The notes under the pieces are model-generated. The model was not told the origin of the DNA. It was given only the letters and a program-made list of their open reading frames with translations, and searched no databases. Shown here in pieces: positions 773 to 32,209 of a stretch of DNA of 32,209 bases. Position 1 is the stretch's first letter; the number at the start of each line of letters is the position of its first letter. The DNA is from a virus (lineage: Duplodnaviria > Heunggongvirae > Uroviricota > Caudoviricetes), in the IMG/VR virus record IMGVR_UViG_2802429251_000009; one strand, 5' to 3'. The position numbers and the translations under genes are program-made.

Positions 773-1780
773 CTACCCTACTGTGGACACAGTGTGGACA
801 CTCATGGAGTCAACGCCACCACGTAGCGGATTGAGTGAAACAGCATCCTGAAGATACTCCGGGGCAAAGTGCGCATAGACCATTGTCTGCTCTATGCGTG
901 AATGTCCCAGTATTCTCTGCAGGGTGATGATACTCCCGCCGTTAATCATAAAGTGGGTAGCAAAACTGTGACGCAATGCGTGAGTTGCTTGCCCGTCCGG
1001 TAGATCTGGTTTTACATCTTTCATTGTTCGCCTGAACTTCGGATATGAGGCATCAGGGAACAGATAACCTTTACCCGCAATCATTACAGCAACTTCCTCA
1101 GAGATAGGGACTGTGCGCGGTTTGTTCGTCTTTGTTTTAACGAACGTCACCCGATTCTGTATTACGTTCTCAGCTTTCAGTTTCGCGGCTTCACCCCATC
1201 GAGCGCCGGTACTTAAACAGAGGATCGCGATTTTCTTGTTGTCCCCGTCAAGATTGGCAAGTAACAATGTTATTTCTTCCTGCGTCAGATAGCCTGTTTC
1301 TGGTTTCTGCTCCTTGAGCTTTTTCATCCCTCTGAAAGGGTGTTCGCCAAAAAACAGTTCCGCATCAATTAGCGCAGTAAACATACCACTCAGGCAGGTA
1401 AGGTCGCGGTTAATACTGGCCGGTTTTATGCCTTGCCCTCTGCGAGTCATGCTGTACTGGCTAATAAGCGCTTTGGTTATCTGGAACGCGCAAGGGTCAT
1501 CAGTGATCCGGGTAAAGATTTCAATCTTACCCAAATTGGATTTTCCGTGTTCTTCATGCTTGCCTTTCAGATCCCACCAGACTTTTGTTAATTCAGACAG
1601 ATGCCGCTTATCTGTCGGTTTAGCTAGCCATTCTTTATCGTGATGGTTGTATTGAGTGTGTTTCTCAAAAGCTACAGCCTCACTTTTCTTGTCAAATTTC
1701 CTGCGGATGCGCTTTCCGTTGCGCCCTGCAGGTCTGATATCCACTTCATAACGACCATCATCGAGTTTCTTAATTGTCAT
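773..1780 (-). CDS. int: Tyrosine recombinase, P2-type integrase
   Basis: 335 aa; C-terminal catalytic region HALRHSFATHFMINGGSIITLQRILGHSRIEQTMVYAHF (R..H-x-x-R...Y motifs); sits next to the att core and the C repressor. Confidence 0.9.
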   Translation of the reverse strand: MTIKKLDDGRYEVDIRPAGRNGKRIRRKFDKKSEAVAFEKHTQYNHHDKEWLAKPTDKRHLSELTKVWWDLKGKHEEHGKSNLGKIEIFTRITDDPCAFQITKALISQYSMTRRGQGIKPASINRDLTCLSGMFTALIDAELFFGEHPFRGMKKLKEQKPETGYLTQEEITLLLANLDGDNKKIAILCLSTGARWGEAAKLKAENVIQNRVTFVKTKTNKPRTVPISEEVAVMIAGKGYLFPDASYPKFRRTMKDVKPDLPDGQATHALRHSFATHFMINGGSIITLQRILGHSRIEQTMVYAHFAPEYLQDAVSLNPLRGGVDSMSVHTVSTVG

Positions 1781-5272: not shown

Positions 5273-5493
5273 TGGCTAGCAAAATTAATAACGGTCTTTC
5301 GGAATACCAGCGCGGCGCACTGGCTGCGCTTAACGAAGCCAAAACACTGGCCCTTGCACACGCAACGTTGGCGGGTGTTCTCGCCGGAAGTGAAGCCGCA
5401 AACACGCTGTTGATTTCTTTCAATGTGTTACTCGACCCGCTAATCGAAAAGCATTCCCAGCGGGAGGGTGATAGCGGGGCATCCAATGTCTGA
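5272..5493 (+). CDS. Small hypothetical protein (73 aa)
   Basis: ATG overlaps the dam stop (TGATG); Ala/Leu-rich; overlaps the gpA start. Coding status uncertain. Confidence 0.35.
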   Translation: MASKINNGLSEYQRGALAALNEAKTLALAHATLAGVLAGSEAANTLLISFNVLLDPLIEKHSQREGDSGASNV

Positions 5494-8101
5494 CACCGCT
5501 TTTGCATGGCCCTGGAACGCGCCGCGCCCAGCTATTGGCCTGTACACCTACGAACCGAAAAAAATCGCCCCGCTTGCAGGGGCGGTGGTACATCATCCAG
5601 CCGTAAAAAAACACATCGATCACATCTTCAAACGCGCCGGTTACAACCCCGACGAGGTTCGGGACCGTAACGCGCTTATCCAGGCGCTGGACAGGCACGA
5701 ACCGTGCGGCCTGCTACTGGCCGCCCATCAAAATATAATCCGGCAGGAAATGGAAGCCGCTAAAGCTACGACGGCAGCCTGGGTCAATACGCCGGAGGGT
5801 GTCGAAGCGCGTTTATTATCAGAGCCGTTCTTCATTCGTGAAGTCTGGCGTAAAAAAATTGAGTGGTTACGGGTCAACCGTGAAACCAGACACACCAATG
5901 ATTTTCTTATGGGGACCGTGAAAAAATCATTGCTGCGTCTTGATGTTGTACGCACAAGGCAAGGTGTTTCGCCTGATATCACCGGCGAACTGGCTGCGTA
6001 CTGGTTCGGGCGCTGGCAACGTCTGGCTGATTTCACAAAGCGGGAAGCACTGAGCGCCGCTAATGAGATCGCCAGCCGCATGGCTGAAATGCTGGGGACG
6101 GAATGCGAAGCCCTGGGACGGAATGTTTCAGACATGAACGTCGAAGAATTGGACTGGCTTTATTACCACCTGGGCCGCGAAATGCTGGCGCTTCGCATTG
6201 TACCGCCTGCATGGTATGCGCCGTGGGAACGCGAGCGCATATGCACGGCCATTTTGCGTATGGCTTCGCCTGACTGGTGGGGGCGTAAAATCTGGCGCTT
6301 GCGTTGTGACTGGCGCGAGAACCAGCTGCGTGCTGTTGGCGCGGTAAATAAAAAAGCGCACGCCTACGTTAGCGTTTCCAGCCTGATCGAGTGGCAGGAA
6401 CAGCGCCGTAAAAACCGGGATTTTTTCAAAAGTCATGAACTGGTAGACGAATACGGCAACGTTTCGTCGCTTGAGGAAATGATTAATAAATCCACGTCTA
6501 ACCCGGCTATTCGTCGCCATGAGCTTATGGCCCGAATGGCTGGGGTTGAGCTTGTCGCCCAAAGTCGCGGCGATGTTGGCATCTTCCTGACCATCACTTG
6601 CCCGTCGAAATATCACAGTAATATTGCGTCCGGCCACCATAACGCCAAATGGAATCATTCCACCGTCGCCCAGGCGCAGCGCTATTTATGCCGAGTATGG
6701 AACCGGGCAACCGCCAAACTGAAACGCGAAGATTTGCGCCCTTACGGCTTCCGCGTCGCTGAGCCGCATCATGATGGGACACCACACTGGCACGCATTGC
6801 TATTTATGCCACAAGAGCAAGTTAAAGCTACGGTTGCGATCCTTCGCGCCTACTTCATTGCGGAAGACCGCGACGAGCTGGGCCGCAATACCGGTGCTCG
6901 TTTCAAGTCAAAAAAAATGGACCCACGGAAAGGGTCAGCAACGGCGTATATCGCGAAATACATTTCGAAGAATATCGACGGCCACGCGCTGGCCGGTGAA
7001 CTGGACGACGAAAGCGGCAAGCCGCTGAATGAAACAGCCAAATATGCAATGGCCTGGGCGTCACTTCACCGCATCCGCCAGTTTCAGCCCATCGGACAGC
7101 CGCCCATATCGGTTTACCGCGAGCTGCGCAAACTGAGCAATCAGATCACGACCCGCCAGAAAATTGACAATACCTTCAAGCGCGGTGCGCCGTTGCTTGT
7201 GGATCCTGCAATGGATGCGGTTTGCGCCGCTGCCGATGTCGGGTGCTTTGCTACCTACATCATCCGCCAGGGGGGTGTTTTGATCCCGCGTGAAAACTAT
7301 GTCGTCCGTCTGGCCTATCAGCCAGCTGATGAAATGAATGCTTATTGTGAGATCCCCGAAAAGGTTTTCGGGGTCTGGTCGCCGCGTCTGGGTGATGCCT
7401 CCCGTATTAGCACCCGTCTGGTTAAATGGAAAATCCGCGCCAAATCCAAAGCCGCCACCGGGGCCAGAAACGGCCCCGGTTTGGGGGTTGACCTTTTGCC
7501 GTCGCCAACCGGCGGCGCTTGGAGTTCTGTCAATAACTCTACGGAAGACGAAAAAATCACCGATTTTTCGCTTGGTGTGGAGGGTATTACAGAAGAATCA
7601 GAAGAGGAAATCGTCGATTTTGAAAATATGGACCAGCCAACGCGGCGCAAATTGATGCGGCGACTACGTGAAACACCATTCAAAAGGCAGCAAAGCGGAT
7701 CACCTTATGAGCCAAGCAGCGAATTAGATGTCGCCTGGCGTTCTGCCGTGGAAAAAACCGAGGCCAGATCGGAGGCTGAAAAAGCCAGACGGGCGGCTCT
7801 TGCCCCTGCGATTGCCAGCCTGCTGGCTGATGCGACGTTGTATTCGGTTGAGATTTCAGAGATTCAGGCCGTTTCGCTGTTAATGGGGAGCCGTCTGGAG
7901 ATAGACGGCAAAGTTTATCAGGCCAGCGCTGACGGCCAGTTGATAACACGTCAATTACCCGATGATGCACGGACGATAAATAAATTATGGGAACGCCTGC
8001 GGGATAACCACGGCATTGATGCCACGCGCCTGCGCTTTGATCCGGTCGGGGAGTATCAAAAAATGCTGGCGGGTGTGGAAGGTCGTCTCCCAAAAGAATG
8101 A
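5486..8101 (+). CDS. Replication initiation endonuclease, P2 gpA-like (rolling-circle HUH nuclease)
   Basis: About 870 aa; HUH-type motif HHDGTPHWHALLF and catalytic tyrosine region TAYIAKYISKNIDG. The ORF track starts at GTG 5468; the first ATG is 5486. Start is ambiguous. Confidence 0.85.
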   Translation: MSDTAFAWPWNAPRPAIGLYTYEPKKIAPLAGAVVHHPAVKKHIDHIFKRAGYNPDEVRDRNALIQALDRHEPCGLLLAAHQNIIRQEMEAAKATTAAWVNTPEGVEARLLSEPFFIREVWRKKIEWLRVNRETRHTNDFLMGTVKKSLLRLDVVRTRQGVSPDITGELAAYWFGRWQRLADFTKREALSAANEIASRMAEMLGTECEALGRNVSDMNVEELDWLYYHLGREMLALRIVPPAWYAPWERERICTAILRMASPDWWGRKIWRLRCDWRENQLRAVGAVNKKAHAYVSVSSLIEWQEQRRKNRDFFKSHELVDEYGNVSSLEEMINKSTSNPAIRRHELMARMAGVELVAQSRGDVGIFLTITCPSKYHSNIASGHHNAKWNHSTVAQAQRYLCRVWNRATAKLKREDLRPYGFRVAEPHHDGTPHWHALLFMPQEQVKATVAILRAYFIAEDRDELGRNTGARFKSKKMDPRKGSATAYIAKYISKNIDGHALAGELDDESGKPLNETAKYAMAWASLHRIRQFQPIGQPPISVYRELRKLSNQITTRQKIDNTFKRGAPLLVDPAMDAVCAAADVGCFATYIIRQGGVLIPRENYVVRLAYQPADEMNAYCEIPEKVFGVWSPRLGDASRISTRLVKWKIRAKSKAATGARNGPGLGVDLLPSPTGGAWSSVNNSTEDEKITDFSLGVEGITEESEEEIVDFENMDQPTRRKLMRRLRETPFKRQQSGSPYEPSSELDVAWRSAVEKTEARSEAEKARRAALAPAIASLLADATLYSVEISEIQAVSLLMGSRLEIDGKVYQASADGQLITRQLPDDARTINKLWERLRDNHGIDATRLRFDPVGEYQKMLAGVEGRLPKE

Positions 8102-8323
8102 ATGCAATCGCGCTGGCCGTCGCAACTGGTTGCGTCGGTTGGCGTGATTCTGCGGGTGCGGGCGGCAAAGAGCCCGGTAGTCAATTTAGCCACTTGAAAG
8201 GAATGCTATGTTCAATATGCCTCAAAAGGTATTGTTTCTGCTAGATAGAAACTGTAATAATGCTATGGTATTTTACCTACCACCGATTATCTTTCAGGTA
8301 AGCTAGATTTTGATGGAGCAATA

Positions 8324-9373
8324 ATGGTTGATATAGAAGAAGTTATTACTAAGAAAAGAAATTCATTAAAGGCCGATCGTTTAGATATGTCTTTTGGTGA
8401 ATTGATGAATATGTTTGAAGACGGAGATTTATTCATCACTCCTGAATATCAAAGGGCATTTCGTTGGTCTAATTTTCAACAAACAAGATTTATTGAGTCT
8501 GTTTTATTGGGAATACCGATCCCCCCGATTTTTGTAGCAGAAGATGATAAGGGAAAATGGGAGGTTGTTGATGGCTTACAGCGTATATCAACAATTTTTT
8601 CATTTTTTGGTGTTCTTACTAATCTCCCAGAAAAAAACAACCTGAAACTATGCAAAGGAGAAATGGTTGCCGAGTTAGAAAATATAACTATTGATGCTCT
8701 TCCAATCAGATTAAAAACAACCATTAAAAGAGCAGTTTGTAGAGTTGAGATTGTTCGCTGGGATAGTAACGAAGATATTAGGTATGAACTATTTAATCGA
8801 CTGAATACAGGGGCTAGCCCGTTATCTGATCAAGAGATAAGAAACTGTATTTTTAGATCATACCCTGTTGATTTAAATAAAATATTGCGTGAAATTGCAG
8901 TTATGCCAAATTTCATTGAGTTGATTAACCCTTCAGCAGCTAAAAAAGAAGAAATGTTTTTAGAGGAGTTAGTGCTTCGCTATTTTGCTTTTAAACATTT
9001 TGATGGTGATTTTAATACTACTGTTCCTAATTTCCTTTCAGACTTCATGCGCTCCGTGTCGAAAGGTGACATTGCTTTTGATTTAGATTGTGAAAAAAAA
9101 TCATTTGTTGAGTTAATTGATTTCTTAATATCTCATGGCGGCAAGGAGTTATTTAGACCTAATGGACCTTTTGCCTTACATCTTTTTGATTCTATATCAT
9201 ACGCTTTGCCAAAAGTATTCGATACTGTCATTGGTAATGAGCAAAAAATTACAGAAGCTATAAATACATTGCTTACTGACGAAAAATATCAAAGTATTAG
9301 CGTGCTCACATTCTCAACTGCACGTACTCGTAATCGGATGGATCGAGCTTTAGAGATTTTCAAAAGTGCATAG
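8324..9373 (+). CDS. DUF262 (ParB/GmrS-N-like) domain protein without an HNH/DUF1524 domain; candidate defence-system component
   Basis: N-terminal signature ITPEYQRAFRWSNFQQTRFIESVLLGIPIPPIF...KWEVVDGLQRISTI; GGAG SD 7 nt upstream; strongly AT-rich; no H-N-H motif seen in the C-terminal half. Confidence 0.75.
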   Translation: MVDIEEVITKKRNSLKADRLDMSFGELMNMFEDGDLFITPEYQRAFRWSNFQQTRFIESVLLGIPIPPIFVAEDDKGKWEVVDGLQRISTIFSFFGVLTNLPEKNNLKLCKGEMVAELENITIDALPIRLKTTIKRAVCRVEIVRWDSNEDIRYELFNRLNTGASPLSDQEIRNCIFRSYPVDLNKILREIAVMPNFIELINPSAAKKEEMFLEELVLRYFAFKHFDGDFNTTVPNFLSDFMRSVSKGDIAFDLDCEKKSFVELIDFLISHGGKELFRPNGPFALHLFDSISYALPKVFDTVIGNEQKITEAINTLLTDEKYQSISVLTFSTARTRNRMDRALEIFKSA

Positions 9374-9986
9374 TTTAGTGGCTGAAATTTATGAAACAAA
9401 CTCCTGGCGAGATGGGGAGTTTGCTAAATTTAGAGTCAACCCCCATCAAGTAGACCCTGTTTTATGGGGGCGGATGTGTGTACCGATGATTTATGCAAAC
9501 TGGGAGGGTTTTGTAGTTAGTTCATTAAAAATGCTTTTAAAGCATTTAAATAAATTAGAACTAACCCCATTACAAATACCTACTAGATTAGTTGTAGTTG
9601 GATTAGGTGACACATATAGAAGTTTAAGTGGGAAGCAATCATTTGAACAACGATGTGAGTTCACTGATAAATTTAATGAGTTATTAAAAAAAACCGTTAA
9701 ATTTAAGACAAAAATTGAAACTAAATCGAATTTGCATAGTGGTGTATTGAAAGAACTATGTCAAATGTTTGCTTTTGATTTTGAAAGATTTAGTGACGTA
9801 ACTGTTACTCTAGATCGTCTTGTTCAAGTGAGAAACTGTATTGCACATGGAGAAAACTCGATTTTACCAACTCAGGAAAATATTGAGTTATACATCGATG
9901 CAGTGAAAGCAGCAATTGATATCATGTTAGAAGAAATTGACTTGTTTTTAACGCAAGAAAGTTATTTATATAAACAGCAAGCCTAA
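9366..9986 (+). CDS. Small protein with HEPN-like Rx4H motif (RNCIAHGE); candidate effector partner of the DUF262 protein
   Basis: GTG start overlaps the upstream stop by 8 nt (coupled); alternative in-frame ATG at 9474. The motif assignment is by eye only. Confidence 0.5.
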   Translation: MHSLVAEIYETNSWRDGEFAKFRVNPHQVDPVLWGRMCVPMIYANWEGFVVSSLKMLLKHLNKLELTPLQIPTRLVVVGLGDTYRSLSGKQSFEQRCEFTDKFNELLKKTVKFKTKIETKSNLHSGVLKELCQMFAFDFERFSDVTVTLDRLVQVRNCIAHGENSILPTQENIELYIDAVKAAIDIMLEEIDLFLTQESYLYKQQA

Positions 9987-10021
9987 AATAAATACTCCGC
10001 CTTAAAGGCGGAGTATTTATT
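9987..10021. terminator. Bidirectional intrinsic terminator, perfect 15-bp stem with 5-nt loop
   Basis: aataaatactccgcc-ttaaa-ggcggagtatttatt read directly; sits between the convergent cargo operon (+) and the zinc-finger/portal operon (-). Confidence 0.65.
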
Positions 10022-10334
10022 GTTGAAGTAATTCCAATGCTATCTGGCGTTCTTCCGGCTTGAGTCGATCAATTAGAAATTTAACCAGCTTGTTGCCGGT
10101 CAGTCCGCTGGGGCTTAGGGTATGTGAAAACTGGGCGTTAAAAACAAAGGTGTGGCCGCATTCAACTTCCGTGCAGGCGCAGTATAAATCAGCCAGTTTT
10201 TTGTCTTTCCAGTCAGATTTACGAATGATGGCCGGTGAGCCGCATTCAGGACATTTAATTTTAAAAACTCGCATGTTCACCATCCCGCACGCCATTGCTA
10301 ACAATGGGGATGATTTTAACTTAACTGCGCTCAT
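10017..10334 (-). CDS. Ogr/Delta-family zinc-finger protein (late-gene activator type)
   Basis: C-x2-C-x22-C-x4-C arrangement with CPECGS...Y.CACTEVECGHTF, resembling P2 Ogr and P4 Delta; start overlaps the portal stop (ATGA). An internal ATG (MRVFKIKCPECG) is an alternative start. Confidence 0.6.
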   Translation of the reverse strand: MSAVKLKSSPLLAMACGMVNMRVFKIKCPECGSPAIIRKSDWKDKKLADLYCACTEVECGHTFVFNAQFSHTLSPSGLTGNKLVKFLIDRLKPEERQIALELLQQ

Positions 10335-11392
10335 TTTTCGCCCTTTTCGGTGGTGATTGCCGGGATATCTACATCAAAATGCAGGTGCAAATGTGGGGGG
10401 ATCTCCGGGTCATTGTTGACGCCGTTCATTAGCTTGCGCTGCAACGGGATAACTTCATCCTTGCGATAGGTTGTGCGGGCGGTTTCAGGGTTGCCCATTA
10501 CCGCGCCATTGGTCGGGATGATACCTGCCAGCCCTGCGGGGAAACGGTGAGCGGTAAAGATATCCTGCGCGGTGATCCCTTTGATGTTGGCAAATTCATC
10601 CTTTGCGCTGACTTCGCCCACAGGCATGATTTTAACCCCTTCCGGGTCGCCCTTCGGGATGTTGATAAACATATTGCGGAAGTTACCCAGCCCTTTGGAC
10701 TGGGCGATCTTCTCTTTGATTTCGTTTTCCATTTCCAGCGTCAGATTCGGATCGCTGGTATAGAGAATAAAGCCCATATGCGCCCCGTTATTGTAGTAAC
10801 GGCGCCGGAAGATGGTTGCCTCACTGTTGAGTAACACCGAATGGATGCCGCCGATATAGTCAGGCAGGCCATATACCTGCTGGCGCGGGTCGTACATTTT
10901 AAAGAAAACGATGTCTTCCGGGTCATAGATAAGCGCTGGCCCTTCCTGCAGAACGGCAAACGAGCCGTCTTTCCGGCAGCGCAGATACAACGACGGCAGC
11001 GGCAGCAGGTCGATCACTTCCCCGAATACGTTACGAATTTTCAGGATAGCGATGTCACCAAACAGCAGGTAATCAAAGACAGCCTGTTCGACCTGGTCAG
11101 GTGTCAGGCCGCCGCCAATATAGCCACCGGCCACCATATTGCGCCGCGCATACAGCACCCCACCATGCTGGCCGTTAAGGTTCGGCAACTGGGCCAGCGC
11201 CAGGCGATCAATCGGGAGTCGCCAGTGGTCATATTCATTGTCATACCAGATATTGTGATAATCCGTGCCGGTCGTCAGGATGGGTTCGGGTTCGCCAAAT
11301 GTGATCACGCTTCCGCGCCCTGGCGTGAAGGTTTCAACCTTGCTGCCGGTCATGGACCTGAATTTTTTATTTTTACGCTGTTTCTTTGTCAT
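10331..11392 (-). CDS. Portal protein, P2 gpQ-like
   Basis: 353 aa; position and orientation as in P2; 4-nt overlap with the terminase gene. Confidence 0.9.
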   Translation of the reverse strand: MTKKQRKNKKFRSMTGSKVETFTPGRGSVITFGEPEPILTTGTDYHNIWYDNEYDHWRLPIDRLALAQLPNLNGQHGGVLYARRNMVAGGYIGGGLTPDQVEQAVFDYLLFGDIAILKIRNVFGEVIDLLPLPSLYLRCRKDGSFAVLQEGPALIYDPEDIVFFKMYDPRQQVYGLPDYIGGIHSVLLNSEATIFRRRYYNNGAHMGFILYTSDPNLTLEMENEIKEKIAQSKGLGNFRNMFINIPKGDPEGVKIMPVGEVSAKDEFANIKGITAQDIFTAHRFPAGLAGIIPTNGAVMGNPETARTTYRKDEVIPLQRKLMNGVNNDPEIPPHLHLHFDVDIPAITTEKGEK

Positions 11393-13200
11393 GCTGCTTT
11401 CCCAAAGTACCAGCCCGATGGGCGGTCATATTCGTGATCGATAGGTTCGTTAATTACGGCGTGCGAGATAGCGAAGAAAACATCTGCATGGCCGGTCGCG
11501 TCTGAACGTTCGGCAACAAACGTCAGCGCGTTGCCGCTGTTGGTTGTCGTGCGCCGGATAGCCATAAAGCTGGCCGGAATTTCGACGCGCTCCTTGTTCG
11601 TTTCGTCTACGGCGTCTTTTGCCCATTCGATGCGCTTACGCTCGACAACGTCGATCATCTTCATCACCAGGCGGTTTTTGCTTTCGACGCTGTAAAGAAT
11701 GGGTGTGGCTTCGCGTGGCGCAAATTTGCTGACCAGGTCATAAACGCCTTTACCTATGCCGGTTGTATCGATCCCGATGTAAGTGATGTTAAAGCGGCGC
11801 ATAAGCTGCTTTATCTGGTCGGCCTGCCAGCTGAAGTTAAAACCCTGCCATTGCCAGACGGCCAGCACGCGGAAGCGCTCGCCGTCCTCTATAGGGGGCG
11901 CGATTAACACAAATGTTGAGTTGTCGCCGGAGCGCGACGGGTCAAAACCTGCCCATACTTCGCGATTGCCGAAGGGCCGCGCAGCAGTCAGATCAAAGTC
12001 GCCCCATGTGGCCCGGTCCACTTCACAGCCAACAAGCGCGGAGAACTTGAAAACCGCGTCTTTACTGTCAACAAACTGGCACATGTAGAGCATGGCGAAC
12101 GCGGTCGGGCTGTATTTGTTGCGAAGCCGTTCAATATCGACAAGCGCACCGAGGCCACCTTCGATAGCGTCTTCCATCGTGATGATGTAGCGCCAGATCT
12201 GGTCCGGGCAGAGAATGCCCTGGCGCATTTCGCTTTCTGTCGGGAACGCCACACCTTTGCGTTTCGGGTCGTCACCGCGCCAGGCTTCGCCAGTCCAGAC
12301 CGGGTAAGCCTGGTGCGTTTTCGCGCTGGGCGTCGAAAAGTAGGTCGTGCGGTATTTGTTATGCGTTGCCATTGCACTGGCAACTTCATGCAGGCGCGTG
12401 AATTTCGGGATCCAGAAAACCTCATCGCCATACAGGTGGCCGTTAAAGCCCTGTGCGGTGCTGGCGTTCGTGGACAAAAAGCGCAGTATTGCGCCGTTAC
12501 TGAGGCGGATATTTTTACCCGTCAGCGTCACGCCGAAATGGTTCTGGGCGATCTGGACGATGTATTCGCGGAAGATTTCCGACTGGGATCGGCTTGCAGA
12601 GAAAAAGACCTGGTTATCACCGGTAATGACGGCGTCTTCAAATGCTTCCCAGGCGAAATAATAGGTCATACCCACCTGGCGGCTTTTCAGAATGAAGCGC
12701 CAGTCTTCGCCTTTATGTTCGCGGCAGTGCAGCTGGTACTCGAAGAGATGTTCCCGCGCCCAGGTGTCGAGCATTTCCGCTGTAATACCGGAAACGTCGT
12801 TTTTCTTATACCGGCGCTTTCTTTCCCTTGGTTCCCCGCCTGCGCTGCTGAGGCAGTACCCTTCACCATCATAAGCCGCTTTCTGGGCCTGAATTTCTGC
12901 CAGCTTTTCGGCGTGCTTGTTGCGCTGCGCCATGAGTTTCACATGGTGAGCAATCAGATCGCGCAGTTCTTCCAGTTCCAGCGCCGTTTTTTTCTCGCGG
13001 CGGGAGAGCTGGTCGATACGGCGGGCGATGACATTTTCCACCGATTCAACAGGCAGCAGTGATGCCCACTTCCCGACGTCAGCCCAGTGGTAAATTGTAC
13101 GCGGTGGAATATTCAGTTCCTGCGCAATATCTTTCGGCGTCCAGCTTTTTATATAAAGCGTGCGGACCGCTTCTTTTAATTCATCGGAATATTTAGCCAT
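11389..13200 (-). CDS. Terminase large (ATPase) subunit, P2 gpP-like
   Basis: 603 aa; first gene of the leftward late operon, followed by the portal gene as in P2. Confidence 0.9.
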   Translation of the reverse strand: MAKYSDELKEAVRTLYIKSWTPKDIAQELNIPPRTIYHWADVGKWASLLPVESVENVIARRIDQLSRREKKTALELEELRDLIAHHVKLMAQRNKHAEKLAEIQAQKAAYDGEGYCLSSAGGEPRERKRRYKKNDVSGITAEMLDTWAREHLFEYQLHCREHKGEDWRFILKSRQVGMTYYFAWEAFEDAVITGDNQVFFSASRSQSEIFREYIVQIAQNHFGVTLTGKNIRLSNGAILRFLSTNASTAQGFNGHLYGDEVFWIPKFTRLHEVASAMATHNKYRTTYFSTPSAKTHQAYPVWTGEAWRGDDPKRKGVAFPTESEMRQGILCPDQIWRYIITMEDAIEGGLGALVDIERLRNKYSPTAFAMLYMCQFVDSKDAVFKFSALVGCEVDRATWGDFDLTAARPFGNREVWAGFDPSRSGDNSTFVLIAPPIEDGERFRVLAVWQWQGFNFSWQADQIKQLMRRFNITYIGIDTTGIGKGVYDLVSKFAPREATPILYSVESKNRLVMKMIDVVERKRIEWAKDAVDETNKERVEIPASFMAIRRTTTNSGNALTFVAERSDATGHADVFFAISHAVINEPIDHEYDRPSGWYFGKAA

Positions 13201-13377
13201 GCGGCTATTATGGCGGGATTATTTTGCAGAATTTATAATTAAATATCGGTATAAAGTGGCTATCCAGTTATAACCGAATACATAAGAAATAAAGCGGTCG
13301 CGCTGTTTTAATCAATTCGCAATACTAACCACCACAAACGAATTATTGTTATTTAAATTCATTATTAAAGGTCAGCT
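13201..13377. promoter_or_regulatory. Divergent late promoter region between the terminase (-) and scaffold (+) operons
   Basis: AT-rich 177-bp intergenic region in the position of P2 P_P/P_O; contains TGT-N12-GCA (~13305-13322), close to the TGT-N12-ACA element of Ogr-dependent promoters. Transcription starts not mapped. Confidence 0.35.
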
Positions 13378-28936: not shown

Positions 28937-30661
28937 ATGAAACCAATTAAACGCCTGTACCTTTCCTCTGATCCGGTCCATCTGATTGACTGCAATATCG
29001 TGCTGGAGCTGAACGCGTGCGGTCGGGGGTTTATTACGGCGGGGACAGAGACAGATTACACCGGCAAAATGGTGCGTATCGATGTTGGTTATGATGGTCT
29101 GGTCCTGCGCTGGTTTACCGGATACGTCGAACGGTCACAGCCTGCTGATAATGGAACATGCCGGTTGTTCGTGCGTGAGCTGGTCGGCATCTTTGATAAA
29201 TTGTGGCCGTGTTCTTTCCAGCATCCAACGTTGCGCCAGATTACTGACTGGATAAGTGAGCAAAGCGGGCTGACCGTCACAACGCCGGTCGGCGCTGCTT
29301 ATGCAGATAAACCGATCCCCCACTTTACGCACAGCGGCACGGGCTACCAGCTTTTTGCCAGTCTGGGCCGAGCATTTTCAGTGACGGATTATCTTTGGTA
29401 TCAGCTGCCGGACGGGGATGTCTTCGTCGGTGCTGCTGAGCACAGTCTTTTTGCGGGTAAACCAGTAGAGATCCCGCACGAATTTAGCCAGGCATCGGCG
29501 GGCGGCAATTCAATGGTTGTGCCGATGATTCAGAGCCTGCGCCCGGGTGCTGAGGTGAACGGCCAGCGGTTAAACCAGGTCCGGCTAAATAACGACGACA
29601 TGACAATCACCTGGCAGCCATGCAACAAAGCCAACGGCCAGCCATTGCAAAAATCACCCATTCAGCGGCAGATTGAAAACGCATTCCCGGAGCTGGCAAG
29701 CGGCCTGCATCTTCCAAAATTCGCCAGGGTGGAAGCGCCAAGCGAGGATGTTTCAGGGGGTAATATTGCCGATCCATTCCGCCCGCGCTATGCCGTGGAT
29801 CTCCAGCTGCTTGACGAATACGGCAAGCCAGCCGCAAATACGCCGGTTTATTCTGCCGTTCCGCTACCTGTACCAATGGCGGGCAGCGAGTCGGGAATGT
29901 TCCAGTTTCCGCCCCCTGGCACGCTGGTTGAAATCGGGTTCACTGAGGGGCGGCAGGATAAGCCCTTCGTGCGCCAGATTATGGCGGAGGGTCATAACCT
30001 GCCAGCGGTTAAACCCGGCGAGCAGTTGCAGCAACAGCGCGATGGTGTATCGCAGCGCGTGACGGTTGCCGGAGACTGGGAACGCCAGACGGACCAGACA
30101 ATCCGCGAAAACTCCATGATGCGCGAAGTCACCACCGACGAAGAGATCCGCAAAGTGGTTGTCCGTGAAACTACGGTCCAGGCAACGGATAAAACAACCG
30201 TGCTTGGCACGGCCACTCTTCTGGCCGGGGCGGTGGTCCATATCAGCGAGGGTGATTACAGTATCGGCACATCCGGCAACCTGACAGTAACCTGCAGCAA
30301 GGACAATTCCGTCAGTGTTGGCCGGAACGCAAAACGGGACGTCGCGGGCGATGTTACAGACGACGTGAAAGGGAATGTCACGTCAAACGTCAGCGGCGCA
30401 CTGACTGAGAAAATCAGCGGTATCCGCCGAAGTGTGGCCCAGGCGCAACAGCTGATTGCCCCGGTGGTAAAACTGGGAAGCGAAGAGATTAACGTCCTGA
30501 CACTACTCACCGACACCCTGGACGTGGTGAGGGAACTGGCAGAGACTGCCGCGTCACATACTCACCCCAACACAGGGGCCAGCGGGCAGGCTGCGCAGTT
30601 CAGCGCAACGGCCACTAAAACCGGTACATTGAAAAGCAAATACGGTCCCCTGATAGCCTGA
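28937..30661 (+). CDS. Putative baseplate hub / central spike protein (gpD-gpV-like, VgrG-like fusion)
   Basis: 574 aa; C-terminal third has repetitive V/T/D/G-rich beta-helix-like segments and an HTHPNTG (H-x-H) motif near the end, as at spike apexes; last gene of the tail cluster. Confidence 0.45.
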   Translation: MKPIKRLYLSSDPVHLIDCNIVLELNACGRGFITAGTETDYTGKMVRIDVGYDGLVLRWFTGYVERSQPADNGTCRLFVRELVGIFDKLWPCSFQHPTLRQITDWISEQSGLTVTTPVGAAYADKPIPHFTHSGTGYQLFASLGRAFSVTDYLWYQLPDGDVFVGAAEHSLFAGKPVEIPHEFSQASAGGNSMVVPMIQSLRPGAEVNGQRLNQVRLNNDDMTITWQPCNKANGQPLQKSPIQRQIENAFPELASGLHLPKFARVEAPSEDVSGGNIADPFRPRYAVDLQLLDEYGKPAANTPVYSAVPLPVPMAGSESGMFQFPPPGTLVEIGFTEGRQDKPFVRQIMAEGHNLPAVKPGEQLQQQRDGVSQRVTVAGDWERQTDQTIRENSMMREVTTDEEIRKVVVRETTVQATDKTTVLGTATLLAGAVVHISEGDYSIGTSGNLTVTCSKDNSVSVGRNAKRDVAGDVTDDVKGNVTSNVSGALTEKISGIRRSVAQAQQLIAPVVKLGSEEINVLTLLTDTLDVVRELAETAASHTHPNTGASGQAAQFSATATKTGTLKSKYGPLIA

Positions 30662-31243: not shown

Positions 31244-32209
31244 TTATAGAAGTTTACTTACTGAAATCAGTTTGGGAGATTTAATGCCAATCTCACATAA
31301 TGTTGTATGATGTGCTTCACGCTCAGTTTCCTGATAATAGGTGGCTATCCATTCCGTATTTTTACTAACAATGCTATGTATAAAAGAAAAGTAGGGAACA
31401 TCTACAGATGATAACGAATGGCCGATGATGATGATTTCGTCTACGTTACTGAGATTTTTAAAAAATTTAGCGCTGTCAGCAATGACTTTTTCAGTATTCT
31501 TAAAAGAAGAAGTGAAGTATTTATTAATAGTCTGCTTTCCCATTTCATAAGAGTGATCGTAATTATCAGCCATCCACTGACGCCACTCTTCAAGTTCTTC
31601 ATCGGTTGCATTTTCGGGCGGGACTGCTTCCTTTTCTTCAAAGTTGATAGGGTCAATACCATGACCTAAAATCAACTGTTGATCTGATGATGCTTTCCCA
31701 TGAATATATAAAATTTGTCTATCATCAATACTATAATATTTCTGAAGAGTGTCAGTGTAATTAAAACTGATAAAGATAGAATCAGAATCGATACGCAATC
31801 TTTTTTTTAAATTAAGTTCGGGGTAGTTAACCTGCAATATAAATGACTTGAATTGTGTTAAAAGTCCCTCGGTTAAATTTTCTAGTATACGTTCCATTTC
31901 AATGGATAATGAGTTCCAGTCCCTGTCACGAAAATCGGGGCTGCTAATTTGGGGTAAAAGATAGCTAAACTCTTCGAGCACCGACTCTGTATCCAGACCC
32001 GCTAAGCTGTTTTCGAAATCAGACCAAAGAGAATGTTTTGACTTATCAACTGCGGAAAGAGAAGGGGGTAAGTCAGTAAATCCCATAAACTCAACCAAGT
32101 GATCGTAAATGTCTCGATCTTTCTTCCGAAGATAATCCCCAAATGAGAAATAGCTCGTGTCAAGTTCGTGATGCAGATCAAACCCATTCCCGATGATGTA
32201 TAGCTTCAT
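31244..32209 (-). CDS. AbiH-like abortive-infection family protein (candidate)
   Basis: N-terminus MKLYIIGNGFDLHHELDTSY matches the IIGNGFD motif I associate with the AbiH family; strongly AT-rich; ATG is the last codon position of the window, so the promoter lies outside. Confidence 0.5.
   Translation of the reverse strand: MKLYIIGNGFDLHHELDTSYFSFGDYLRKKDRDIYDHLVEFMGFTDLPPSLSAVDKSKHSLWSDFENSLAGLDTESVLEEFSYLLPQISSPDFRDRDWNSLSIEMERILENLTEGLLTQFKSFILQVNYPELNLKKRLRIDSDSIFISFNYTDTLQKYYSIDDRQILYIHGKASSDQQLILGHGIDPINFEEKEAVPPENATDEELEEWRQWMADNYDHSYEMGKQTINKYFTSSFKNTEKVIADSAKFFKNLSNVDEIIIIGHSLSSVDVPYFSFIHSIVSKNTEWIATYYQETEREAHHTTLCEIGIKSPKLISVSKLL

Follow-up and report, generated by a model that had tools for sequence, protein, structure and literature searches.

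The DNA analysed here, a stretch of 32,209 nucleotides that is called the window below, is that of a P2-family (Peduoviridae) phage. On its map, an integrase gene (773..1780, minus strand) is followed by an XRE-type repressor and early genes, then by the gene of a gpA-type replication protein (5468..8101) and by two cargo genes. After the cargo, the minus strand carries an ogr-like gene, the portal gene and the terminase gene, and the plus strand carries the scaffold, capsid, small terminase, head completion, tail, lysis and baseplate genes. The ogr-like gene is adjoined by a variable defence-gene hot spot. For most of its length, the window shares ~95% identity with Salmonella phage SW3 (Irrigatiovirus), which has a complete genome of 30,037 bp and whose record wraps at window position 30605/30606. 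All blocks of SW3 have a counterpart in the window and, therefore, the whole phage appears to be present. A cos site was sought in the window by comparison with P2 cos and was not located; the G-rich stretch at 8155-8175, which is kept in the nearest relatives only, was considered as a P2-like cos and rejected, its match to P2 cos being no better than background. The features of the locus and of the late control region are collected in Table 1.

Table 1. Position of the ogr-like gene, its neighbours and the predicted control elements in the window.
Feature	Position	Strand	Description or basis
Hairpin of 16 bp with flanking T/A runs	9987..10021	both	bidirectional intrinsic terminator
Ogr/Delta-like ORF, long form	10017..10334	-	105 aa; ATG overlaps the portal stop codon
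Short form, internal ATG (M21), MRVFKIKCPEC	10017..10274	-	85 aa; start used by extension-less relatives
C4 zinc-ribbon core, C28-x2-C31-x22-C54-x4-C59	10158..10253	-	profile and cysteine motif
GGGATGG, SD-like sequence for M21	10280..10286	-	SD-like energy
TAAAAT, candidate sigma-70 -10 element	10313..10318	-	codons 6-8 of the extension; G at 10320
ATGA stop/start overlap, portal/ogr-like	10331..10334	-	kept in 43/53 distinct loci
AAGGGCG, SD-like sequence for the long-form start	10339..10345	-	within the final portal codons
Portal gene (gpQ-like)	10331..11392	-	Pfam Phage_portal
Large terminase gene (gpP-like)	11389..13200	-	Pfam Terminase_6N, Terminase_6C, Terminase_5
Divergent late control region, terminase (P)/scaffold (O)	13201..13377		177 nt; alignment and spacing analysis
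-10-like CATAAT	13207..13212	-	conserved in relatives
Candidate activator site, phased half-sites	13246..13278		counterpart of the relatives' TTCGG-N13/14-CCGAA dyad
Half-site TCGGT	13246..13250
Degenerate half-site GTGGC	13256..13260
Half-site CCGAA	13274..13278
-10-like AATACT	13321..13326	+	conserved in relatives

Among the members of the Ogr/Delta family are B of phage 186, Pag of PSP3 and Delta of P4; late activators of the P2 type bind zinc and contact the alpha subunit of RNA polymerase at late promoters. The ORF behind the portal gene had been predicted to encode a C-x2-C-x22-C-x4-C protein resembling P2 Ogr. Indeed, the ORF is there and its cysteines (C28, C31, C54 and C59, with an additional C52) are spaced as claimed, which is the motif given for Ogr (PMC3931495). 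Residues 27-73 matched the Pfam profile Ogr_Delta (PF04606) with 63 bits and E=2.4e-17 (cut-off 26.3), and the profile was covered completely (positions 1-47); the family hit on which the original prediction had been made to depend was thus obtained. The window protein and P2 Ogr also have phrog_603 in common and, being a small protein (85 or 105 aa, depending on the start) of a P2-family phage, the gene product fits the family in size and origin as well. In a BLASTP comparison with P2 Ogr, similarity was confined to the zinc finger (31% identity over 39 residues), in which all four cysteines were aligned. The equivalog model for P2 Ogr (NCBIfam NF007241 / PRK09678) gave the window protein 19.9 bits versus a cut-off of 116, with P2 Ogr itself reaching 177.6 bits; since the window protein fails this model, a function identical to that of Ogr cannot be assumed. 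By profile and motif it is a member of the Ogr/Delta family and not a strict orthologue of P2 Ogr. Its subfamily is marked by a conserved LSPSG linker and two C-terminal helices. In an AlphaFold2 model (mean pLDDT 59), only these two helices (residues 80-104) were predicted with confidence, and a search of PDB sequences with the window protein returned no significant match.

The original prediction had allowed for two further genes or roles: a canonical ogr beyond the window near attR, or a function of the present ORF as a second, cargo-type zinc-finger regulator. When the window and SW3 were searched by tblastn with the window protein and P2 Ogr as queries, one locus only was found, and a six-frame scan for the cysteine motif agreed in finding no second Ogr-type gene. 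There is, then, no canonical ogr near attR, as the whole phage appears to lie within the window and has this one locus. A second, cargo-type regulator is ruled out by the single Ogr/Delta copy and by the conserved core position of the gene in many genera. Neither the variable presence nor the hot-spot position of a moron was seen, the gene having the same core position in all relatives; the DNA that adjoins it (8177-10044) is replaced among relatives while the gene stays.

Homologues were found by tblastn in 155 records of the phage collection. Six phages were inspected, namely SW3, ESSI-2 (Seongnamvirus), vB_YenM_324 (Tresduoquattuorvirus), K139 (Longwoodvirus), phiO18P (Bielevirus) and a Pseudomonas phage, and in all six the gene lies directly 3' of the portal gene, on the same strand and before the replication module. 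In a scan of enterobacterial genomes with one genome per species, the portal gene was immediately upstream in about 55 of 80 loci. Altogether, the post-portal position was found in phages of at least six genera. In print, an ogr homologue had been placed between the portal protein and the replication endonuclease of K139 and Smhb1 in 2021, with some speculation on its timing (PMC8537503). The position of the gene, which had been put forward as unusual, is so with respect to P2 itself and only there: the order terminase-portal-ogr is the standard one in the branches of K139, phiO18P, ESSI-2 and Irrigatiovirus. Many phage and bacterial records already carry annotations of the gene, its family and its place beside the portal gene.

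The two gene junctions of the terminase-portal-ogr group were read on the minus strand. The portal/ogr junction reads GGGCGAAAAATGAGCGCAG, with the ATGA overlap at 10331-10334, and the terminase/portal junction reads GCAGCATGACAAAG, with the same overlap at 11389-11392; the portal gene directly upstream on the same strand and the likeness of the two overlaps are therefore as the original prediction had them. The overlap with the portal gene, the SD-like sequence inside the portal gene and the preservation of both in relatives, in which the G-rich positions of the AAGGGCG region are kept, lead us to predict that the two genes are translationally coupled. Downstream, the stop codon of the ogr-like gene lies inside the stem of the 9987-10021 hairpin, which has a folding energy of -22.9 kcal/mol (z = -6.7 versus shuffled sequences). 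This hairpin ends the P-Q-ogr transcript as well as the convergent cargo genes of the opposite strand. Because the ORF ends at a strong hairpin terminator, the late P-Q transcript would include the ogr-like gene. Taken together, what had been observed at the locus was confirmed, and the interpretation given to it was supported in part.

The ORF has two possible starts, and both are preceded by SD-like sequences that are better than those of random positions (median about -1.6 kcal/mol). In the window, the SD-like energy amounts to -7.8 kcal/mol for the internal M21 versus -4.4 kcal/mol for the long-form start, and in relatives the medians are -5.6 to -6.3 versus -4.2 to -5.0 kcal/mol. M21 is nearly invariant in the alignment of relatives. 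The copies in phiO18P, Providencia, satellites and tail clusters start at the M21 position and have no extension; the SW3 annotation (QEI25520.1) uses the same start as the 105-aa ORF, and some NCBI annotations of close homologues are 81-91 aa only. The near-invariant M21 with its stronger SD-like sequence, the extension-less copies and the short annotations speak for the production of the 85-aa form only, which would be made from a promoter of its own and from an internal ribosome-binding site on the late mRNA; the 20 upstream codons would then be untranslated leader and promoter DNA, with an open frame and an ATGA that arose as by-products of tight packing at the junction. Low conservation of the extension compared to the zinc-finger core (pN/pS 0.56-0.60 versus 0.16-0.17) and the low AlphaFold2 confidence for residues 1-20 point in the same direction.

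The junctions of 53 distinct portal-linked homologous loci tell against such a by-product. Despite divergence at almost all positions, 49 of them can be read in the ogr frame from the portal stop to the zinc finger without meeting a stop codon, whereas the other two frames contain stops in 26 and 51 loci, respectively. Between the portal stop and the first cysteine there are, with few exceptions, 71 or 77 nt. An ATG, GTG or TTG overlaps the portal stop in 43/53 loci, with the final portal codon almost always supplying, as its third base, the letter needed for such a start codon. Calculated over the same bases of the extension, pN/pS rises to 0.8-1.5 when either of the other two frames is read instead of the ogr frame. 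The extension has a recurring, basic beginning, M-x4-(L/V)-K-(S/F), and a basic, K/R-rich extension persists in three loci without an overlap with the portal stop (L019, L062 and L067); furthermore, the internal codon is GTG instead of ATG in L044, L049 and L062. In view of the open frame, the overlaps and the pN/pS values, the 20-codon extension looks translated and loosely constrained, and from these sequence comparisons it is plausible that both products, of 105 and 85 aa, are made. That the short form alone is produced we hold to be unlikely, a reading which keeps appreciable weight.

Inside the extension, a TAAAAT hexamer was found to be invariant or nearly so in 55 distinct sequences, with a G two bases upstream in 51 of them; the rare variants TAAGAT, TAGAAT and TAAACT keep TAnnnT. 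The hexamer lies 44 nt before the internal ATG in the window and 38-44 nt before it across relatives. As a sigma-70 -10 element it would direct a transcript start near position 10306. It is identical to the hexamer in the annotated -10 signal of P2 ogr (TAAAATG, 40 nt before the ATG) and, since sequence and position both agree, G-N-TAAAAT probably marks a sigma-70 promoter of the gene itself. The corresponding -35 region is weak, with GCGAAA in the window and T-G at -34/-33 common in relatives; its conservation is ambiguous because the same bases are portal codons and belong to the SD-like sequence of the long form. A simple sigma-70 promoter scan of the ogr strand returned no site at its threshold. 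Two other control elements were looked for and rejected: as an autoregulatory half-site, there is a CCGAA 32 nt before TAAAAT in the window, which relatives do not keep, and as an operator in common with the repressor/cox control region, a single 8-mer, TTTGATGT, near 10378, which is at about chance level and lost in close relatives.

The poor -35 region, the negative scan and the fact that the hexamer lies within translated sequence, where it encodes L-K-S, would also fit a gene that is expressed as the coupled long form only. TAAAAT would then be kept for some purpose other than a promoter, such as a signal in RNA or translation or a motif of the protein, and synthesis of the activator would begin from basal leakage of the late terminase promoter. 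Yet the hexamer is fixed as nucleotides while the amino acids change: the codons over it vary in sense (L/V/I, K, S/F/Y/L), always by way of xTA codons for leucine, valine or isoleucine and AAA for lysine. It is also kept in two Providencia loci (L022 and L023) without an ORF over it, and the -10 signal of P2 ogr contains it at a similar distance from the ATG. Moreover, a start-up problem would arise if the sole activator depended for its synthesis on the very promoter that it must switch on; a separate promoter of the gene would remove it. We therefore consider the long-form-only alternative quite improbable and retain the promoter within the extension as the preferred reading; since the conserved -10 element precedes the internal start, dependence of the gene on the late operon alone is unlikely.

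The late genes diverge from the region between terminase and scaffold, to which the original prediction had assigned promoters that the protein might activate. In P2-type phages, a TGT-N12-ACA dyad lies about 55 nt upstream of the late transcript starts. No exact copy of this sequence, the P2 late-promoter consensus (PMC3931495), was found in the intergenic regions of the window, 13201-13377 included. The window contains eight TGT-N12-ACA sequences, all of them inside genes (7.3 are expected by chance), and a near-match at 13304 is not conserved in relatives; a P2-type Ogr site was, therefore, rejected. Alignment of the relatives' regions revealed another dyad: TTCGG-N13/14-CCGAA is perfect in 31 of 50 distinct intergenic regions and present with at most one mismatch in 40 of 50, a level that only 0.8% of shuffled sequences reached. 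In 691 kb of fetched loci, perfect TTCGG-N13-15-CCGAA occurred 39 times versus about two times expected, once per terminase-scaffold region, with others beside ogr-like genes in Xenorhabdus tail clusters. The late control region of K139 has the dyad in perfect form, as TTCGG-N14-CCGAA. Most perfect-dyad loci show a fixed spacing of exactly 47 nt between the start of a half-site and the conserved -10-like element on that side, CATAAT for the terminase gene and AATA(C/A)T for the scaffold gene; additional half-sites are often seen 10 bp further out. In the window, the right CCGAA is intact and lies 47 nt before AATACT, the spacing of most relatives with a perfect dyad; the inner left half-site is degenerate, with TCGGT 10 bp further left. 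Its co-occurrence with this Ogr subfamily makes the dyad the best candidate for the binding site of the protein. On the late plus strand, no other clear intergenic promoter region was seen, so that the two divergent promoters may drive all late genes.

From these comparisons, the gene, the last one of the terminase-portal operon as is usual in the K139/HP1-like branch of the P2 family, most likely encodes an activator of the late (head, tail and lysis) genes, and the following course can be envisaged. After infection or induction, host RNA polymerase would start at the weak sigma-70 promoter with G-N-TAAAAT (10313-10320) as its -10 region, giving an mRNA with a leader of ~32 nt from which M21 would be used and the 85-aa protein be made. 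This protein would bind the phased TTCGG/CCGAA half-sites and switch on both divergent late promoters. The leftward late transcript would then comprise the terminase, portal and ogr-like genes up to the hairpin, more activator would be made in a positive feedback, as is implied for P2 by the place of ogr after the late F operon, and ribosomes that finish the portal gene could restart at the overlapping ATG to give the 105-aa form with its basic N-terminal extension of 20 residues. We regard this model as a whole, with a sole late activator, an own promoter, feedback through the late operon, two forms and TTCGG/CCGAA as the target, as rather likely to be correct.

Three observations could instead be taken to mean that the regulator has another job, such as cross-talk with satellites or control of cargo or lysogeny, and that the late genes are controlled otherwise: the protein is no equivalog of P2 Ogr, the late control region is devoid of the P2-type dyad, and the gene is situated next to the hot spot of defence genes. 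However, it is the only Ogr/Delta member in the phage and a core gene that has kept its position while the neighbouring cargo varied, copies of the same subfamily adjoin structural-gene operons with the same dyad, tail-only clusters included, and no other candidate for a late activator was seen in the window. A regulator with such another job is, hence, very improbable, and the late-activator model is the one we follow.

A more far-reaching proposal joins two of its parts, a dual-coded portal/ogr switch that yields 85 aa early and 105 aa late, and a subfamily-specific TTCGG-N13/14-CCGAA target. In such a switch, the 20 codons of the extension, coupled in translation to the portal gene, may also hold the -10 element. 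We put this combination forward tentatively and rather doubt that both parts will hold together; if the switch were real, the 105-aa form would be made in step with portal synthesis, and the two forms could differ in activity. As it was first stated, the finding at this locus is real but ordinary and matters little. The analysis settles two questions: there is no second ogr, and expression of the gene probably has a source besides the late operon. Leads for specialists of the P2 family are the promoter hidden in a coupled coding extension and the mirror-symmetric dyad of the late promoters, and comparative leads of this kind could be of use in predicting the helper phages that given satellites exploit.

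The closest known counterpart is the 'transcriptional regulator' of SW3, SW5 and SI7 (Irrigatiovirus; e.g. QEI25520.1), which is 97% identical in amino acids to the window protein and agrees with it in the post-portal place, the 4-nt overlap and the flanking late genes. Its final residues and the terminator differ between SW3 and the window because homology to SW3 stops at window position 10045. The cargo differs too, the window having genes for a GmrSD_N protein and a HEPN protein and SW3 those for a hypothetical protein and a DNA methylase. The homologues in K139 (Orf13), Kappa, VPUSM 8, Smhb1 and phiO18P belong to the same Ogr/Delta subfamily with ~50% identity, and in these K139-type phages the gene lies, as in the window, between portal and replication genes on the strand of the portal gene. 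Unlike the window, K139 has a small orf14 and a gap of 281 nt between portal and orf13, and phiO18P has a non-coding gap of 65 nt from the annotated portal gene to the regulator; neither has the overlap or the N-terminal extension. The Delta-like genes of P4-type satellites in Enterobacterales (L056, L070, L077 and L081) are likewise of this subfamily, 50-60% identical including the C-terminal helices, but they follow a P4-alpha-like primase-helicase (Zn_Ribbon_Prim, Toprim_3, DUF927) instead of the portal gene and lie beside defence-type cargo. They start at MR(V/I)xK without an extension, and repeated GTTACC motifs are found upstream of them in place of TAAAAT. Other copies of the subfamily away from a portal gene are those of the tail-only clusters.

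Compared to P2, the window protein and its subfamily have the conserved C-terminal two-helix tail and the optional N-terminal extension, and the late control region of the window has TTCGG/CCGAA half-sites without the TGT-N12-ACA of P2. The two genes follow different partners, P2 ogr starting 81 nt after the tail gene D and the window gene following the portal gene. The P2 record assigns one terminator to both ogr and the late operon ('for ogr transcript and F operon'); with its place after gene D and this common terminator, P2 ogr, too, comes last behind a late operon, and in this respect the two genes are alike, each sharing a terminator with the operon that precedes it. Birkeland et al. are said to have found in 1991 that P2 ogr is co-transcribed with the late operon late in infection. 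The positive feedback through the late operon that had been read from the place of the window gene in such an operon is a reasonable inference; it is not new given the P2 precedent, and it would act in addition to the gene's own probable promoter, whose -10 hexamer is that of P2 ogr as well.

A variable cargo hot spot separates the replication gene from the ogr-like gene, which encodes an Ogr/Delta-type zinc-finger protein. It carries two overlapping genes that look like a defence pair, whereas the matching site of the related Salmonella phage SW3 holds one gene for a hypothetical protein and one for a DNA methylase. Homology to SW3 restarts at position 10045, within the final codons of the ogr-like gene and, therefore, the cargo swap exchanged the C-terminal residues of the protein and its terminator as well. 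At the right end of the window, a complete AbiH-family gene is located just past 31156, where the final SW3-matching block stops; the place it occupies, with tail genes on one side and the integrase gene on the other, may be a second cargo site.

Cargo genes and candidate operator in the window
Feature	Position	Strand	Description
Cargo hot spot	8177-10044		variable
Cargo gene 1	8324-9373	+	GmrSD_N/DUF262 protein
Cargo gene 2	9366-9986	+	HEPN protein (RiboL-PSP / MAE_28990 type), overlaps cargo gene 1
Abortive-infection gene	31244-32209	-	AbiH family, complete; final 966 bases of the window
Inverted repeat TTTGATGTT-N8-AACATCAAA	2267-2292		in the 116-nt gap between a repressor-like gene (1926-2225, -) and a cox-like gene (2342-2617, +)

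Ogr/Delta-like genes of the same subfamily were also found after P4-alpha-like primase-helicase genes (Zn_Ribbon_Prim, Toprim_3, DUF927) in loci L056, L070, L071, L075-L077 and L080-L088. There, at least three direct GTTACC repeats are present between the primase-helicase gene and the ogr-like gene, approximately 100 nt upstream of the latter, and defence-type genes (HATPase_c_3; GmrSD_N and HNH) follow downstream. These loci look like P4-type satellites with an activator matched to the helper lineage of the window phage.

Phages K139 (L002) and phiO18P (L007) have a palindrome in common, CTGTA(c/t)AAAAACACAG, approximately 60-85 nt ahead of the gene for the zinc-finger protein. In both phages it is immediately followed by a promoter-like pair (TTGA(C/T)G ... 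TA(T/A)GAT), and it may be an operator for the activator gene in the K139/phiO18P branch; unlike this branch, the lineage of the window does not have the palindrome. The inverted repeat in the gap between the repressor-like and cox-like genes of the window is likely an immunity operator.

Three Xenorhabdus loci (L060, L065 and L066) contain an ogr-like gene without a nearby portal gene. A perfect TTCGG-N14-CCGAA dyad comes after this gene in all three. In L060 and L065 it is also followed by a P2-family tail gene for a DUF2586 protein, which may be the sheath, together with adjacent tail genes. These loci may be tail-only (tailocin-type) clusters controlled by the same kind of activator.

On the minus strand of the window, a conserved -10-like element, CATAAT (13207-13212), is separated by 6 nt from the terminase start codon (ATG at 13200), as it is in most relatives. 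This spacing suggests that the terminase mRNA would be leaderless or nearly so; Xenorhabdus relatives, in contrast, have a terminase leader of ~38 nt with a Shine-Dalgarno sequence. The late control region (13201-13377 in the window and the equivalent region in loci L002-L089) is mirror-symmetric in the relatives: in a single TTCGG-N13/14-CCGAA dyad, each half-site is exactly 47 nt from a -10-like element, one belonging to the terminase promoter and the other to the divergent scaffold promoter. Additional half-sites lie 10 bp farther outward. The late consensus of P2 is TGT-N12-ACA, but the late control region of the relatives has TTCGG-N13/14-CCGAA instead.
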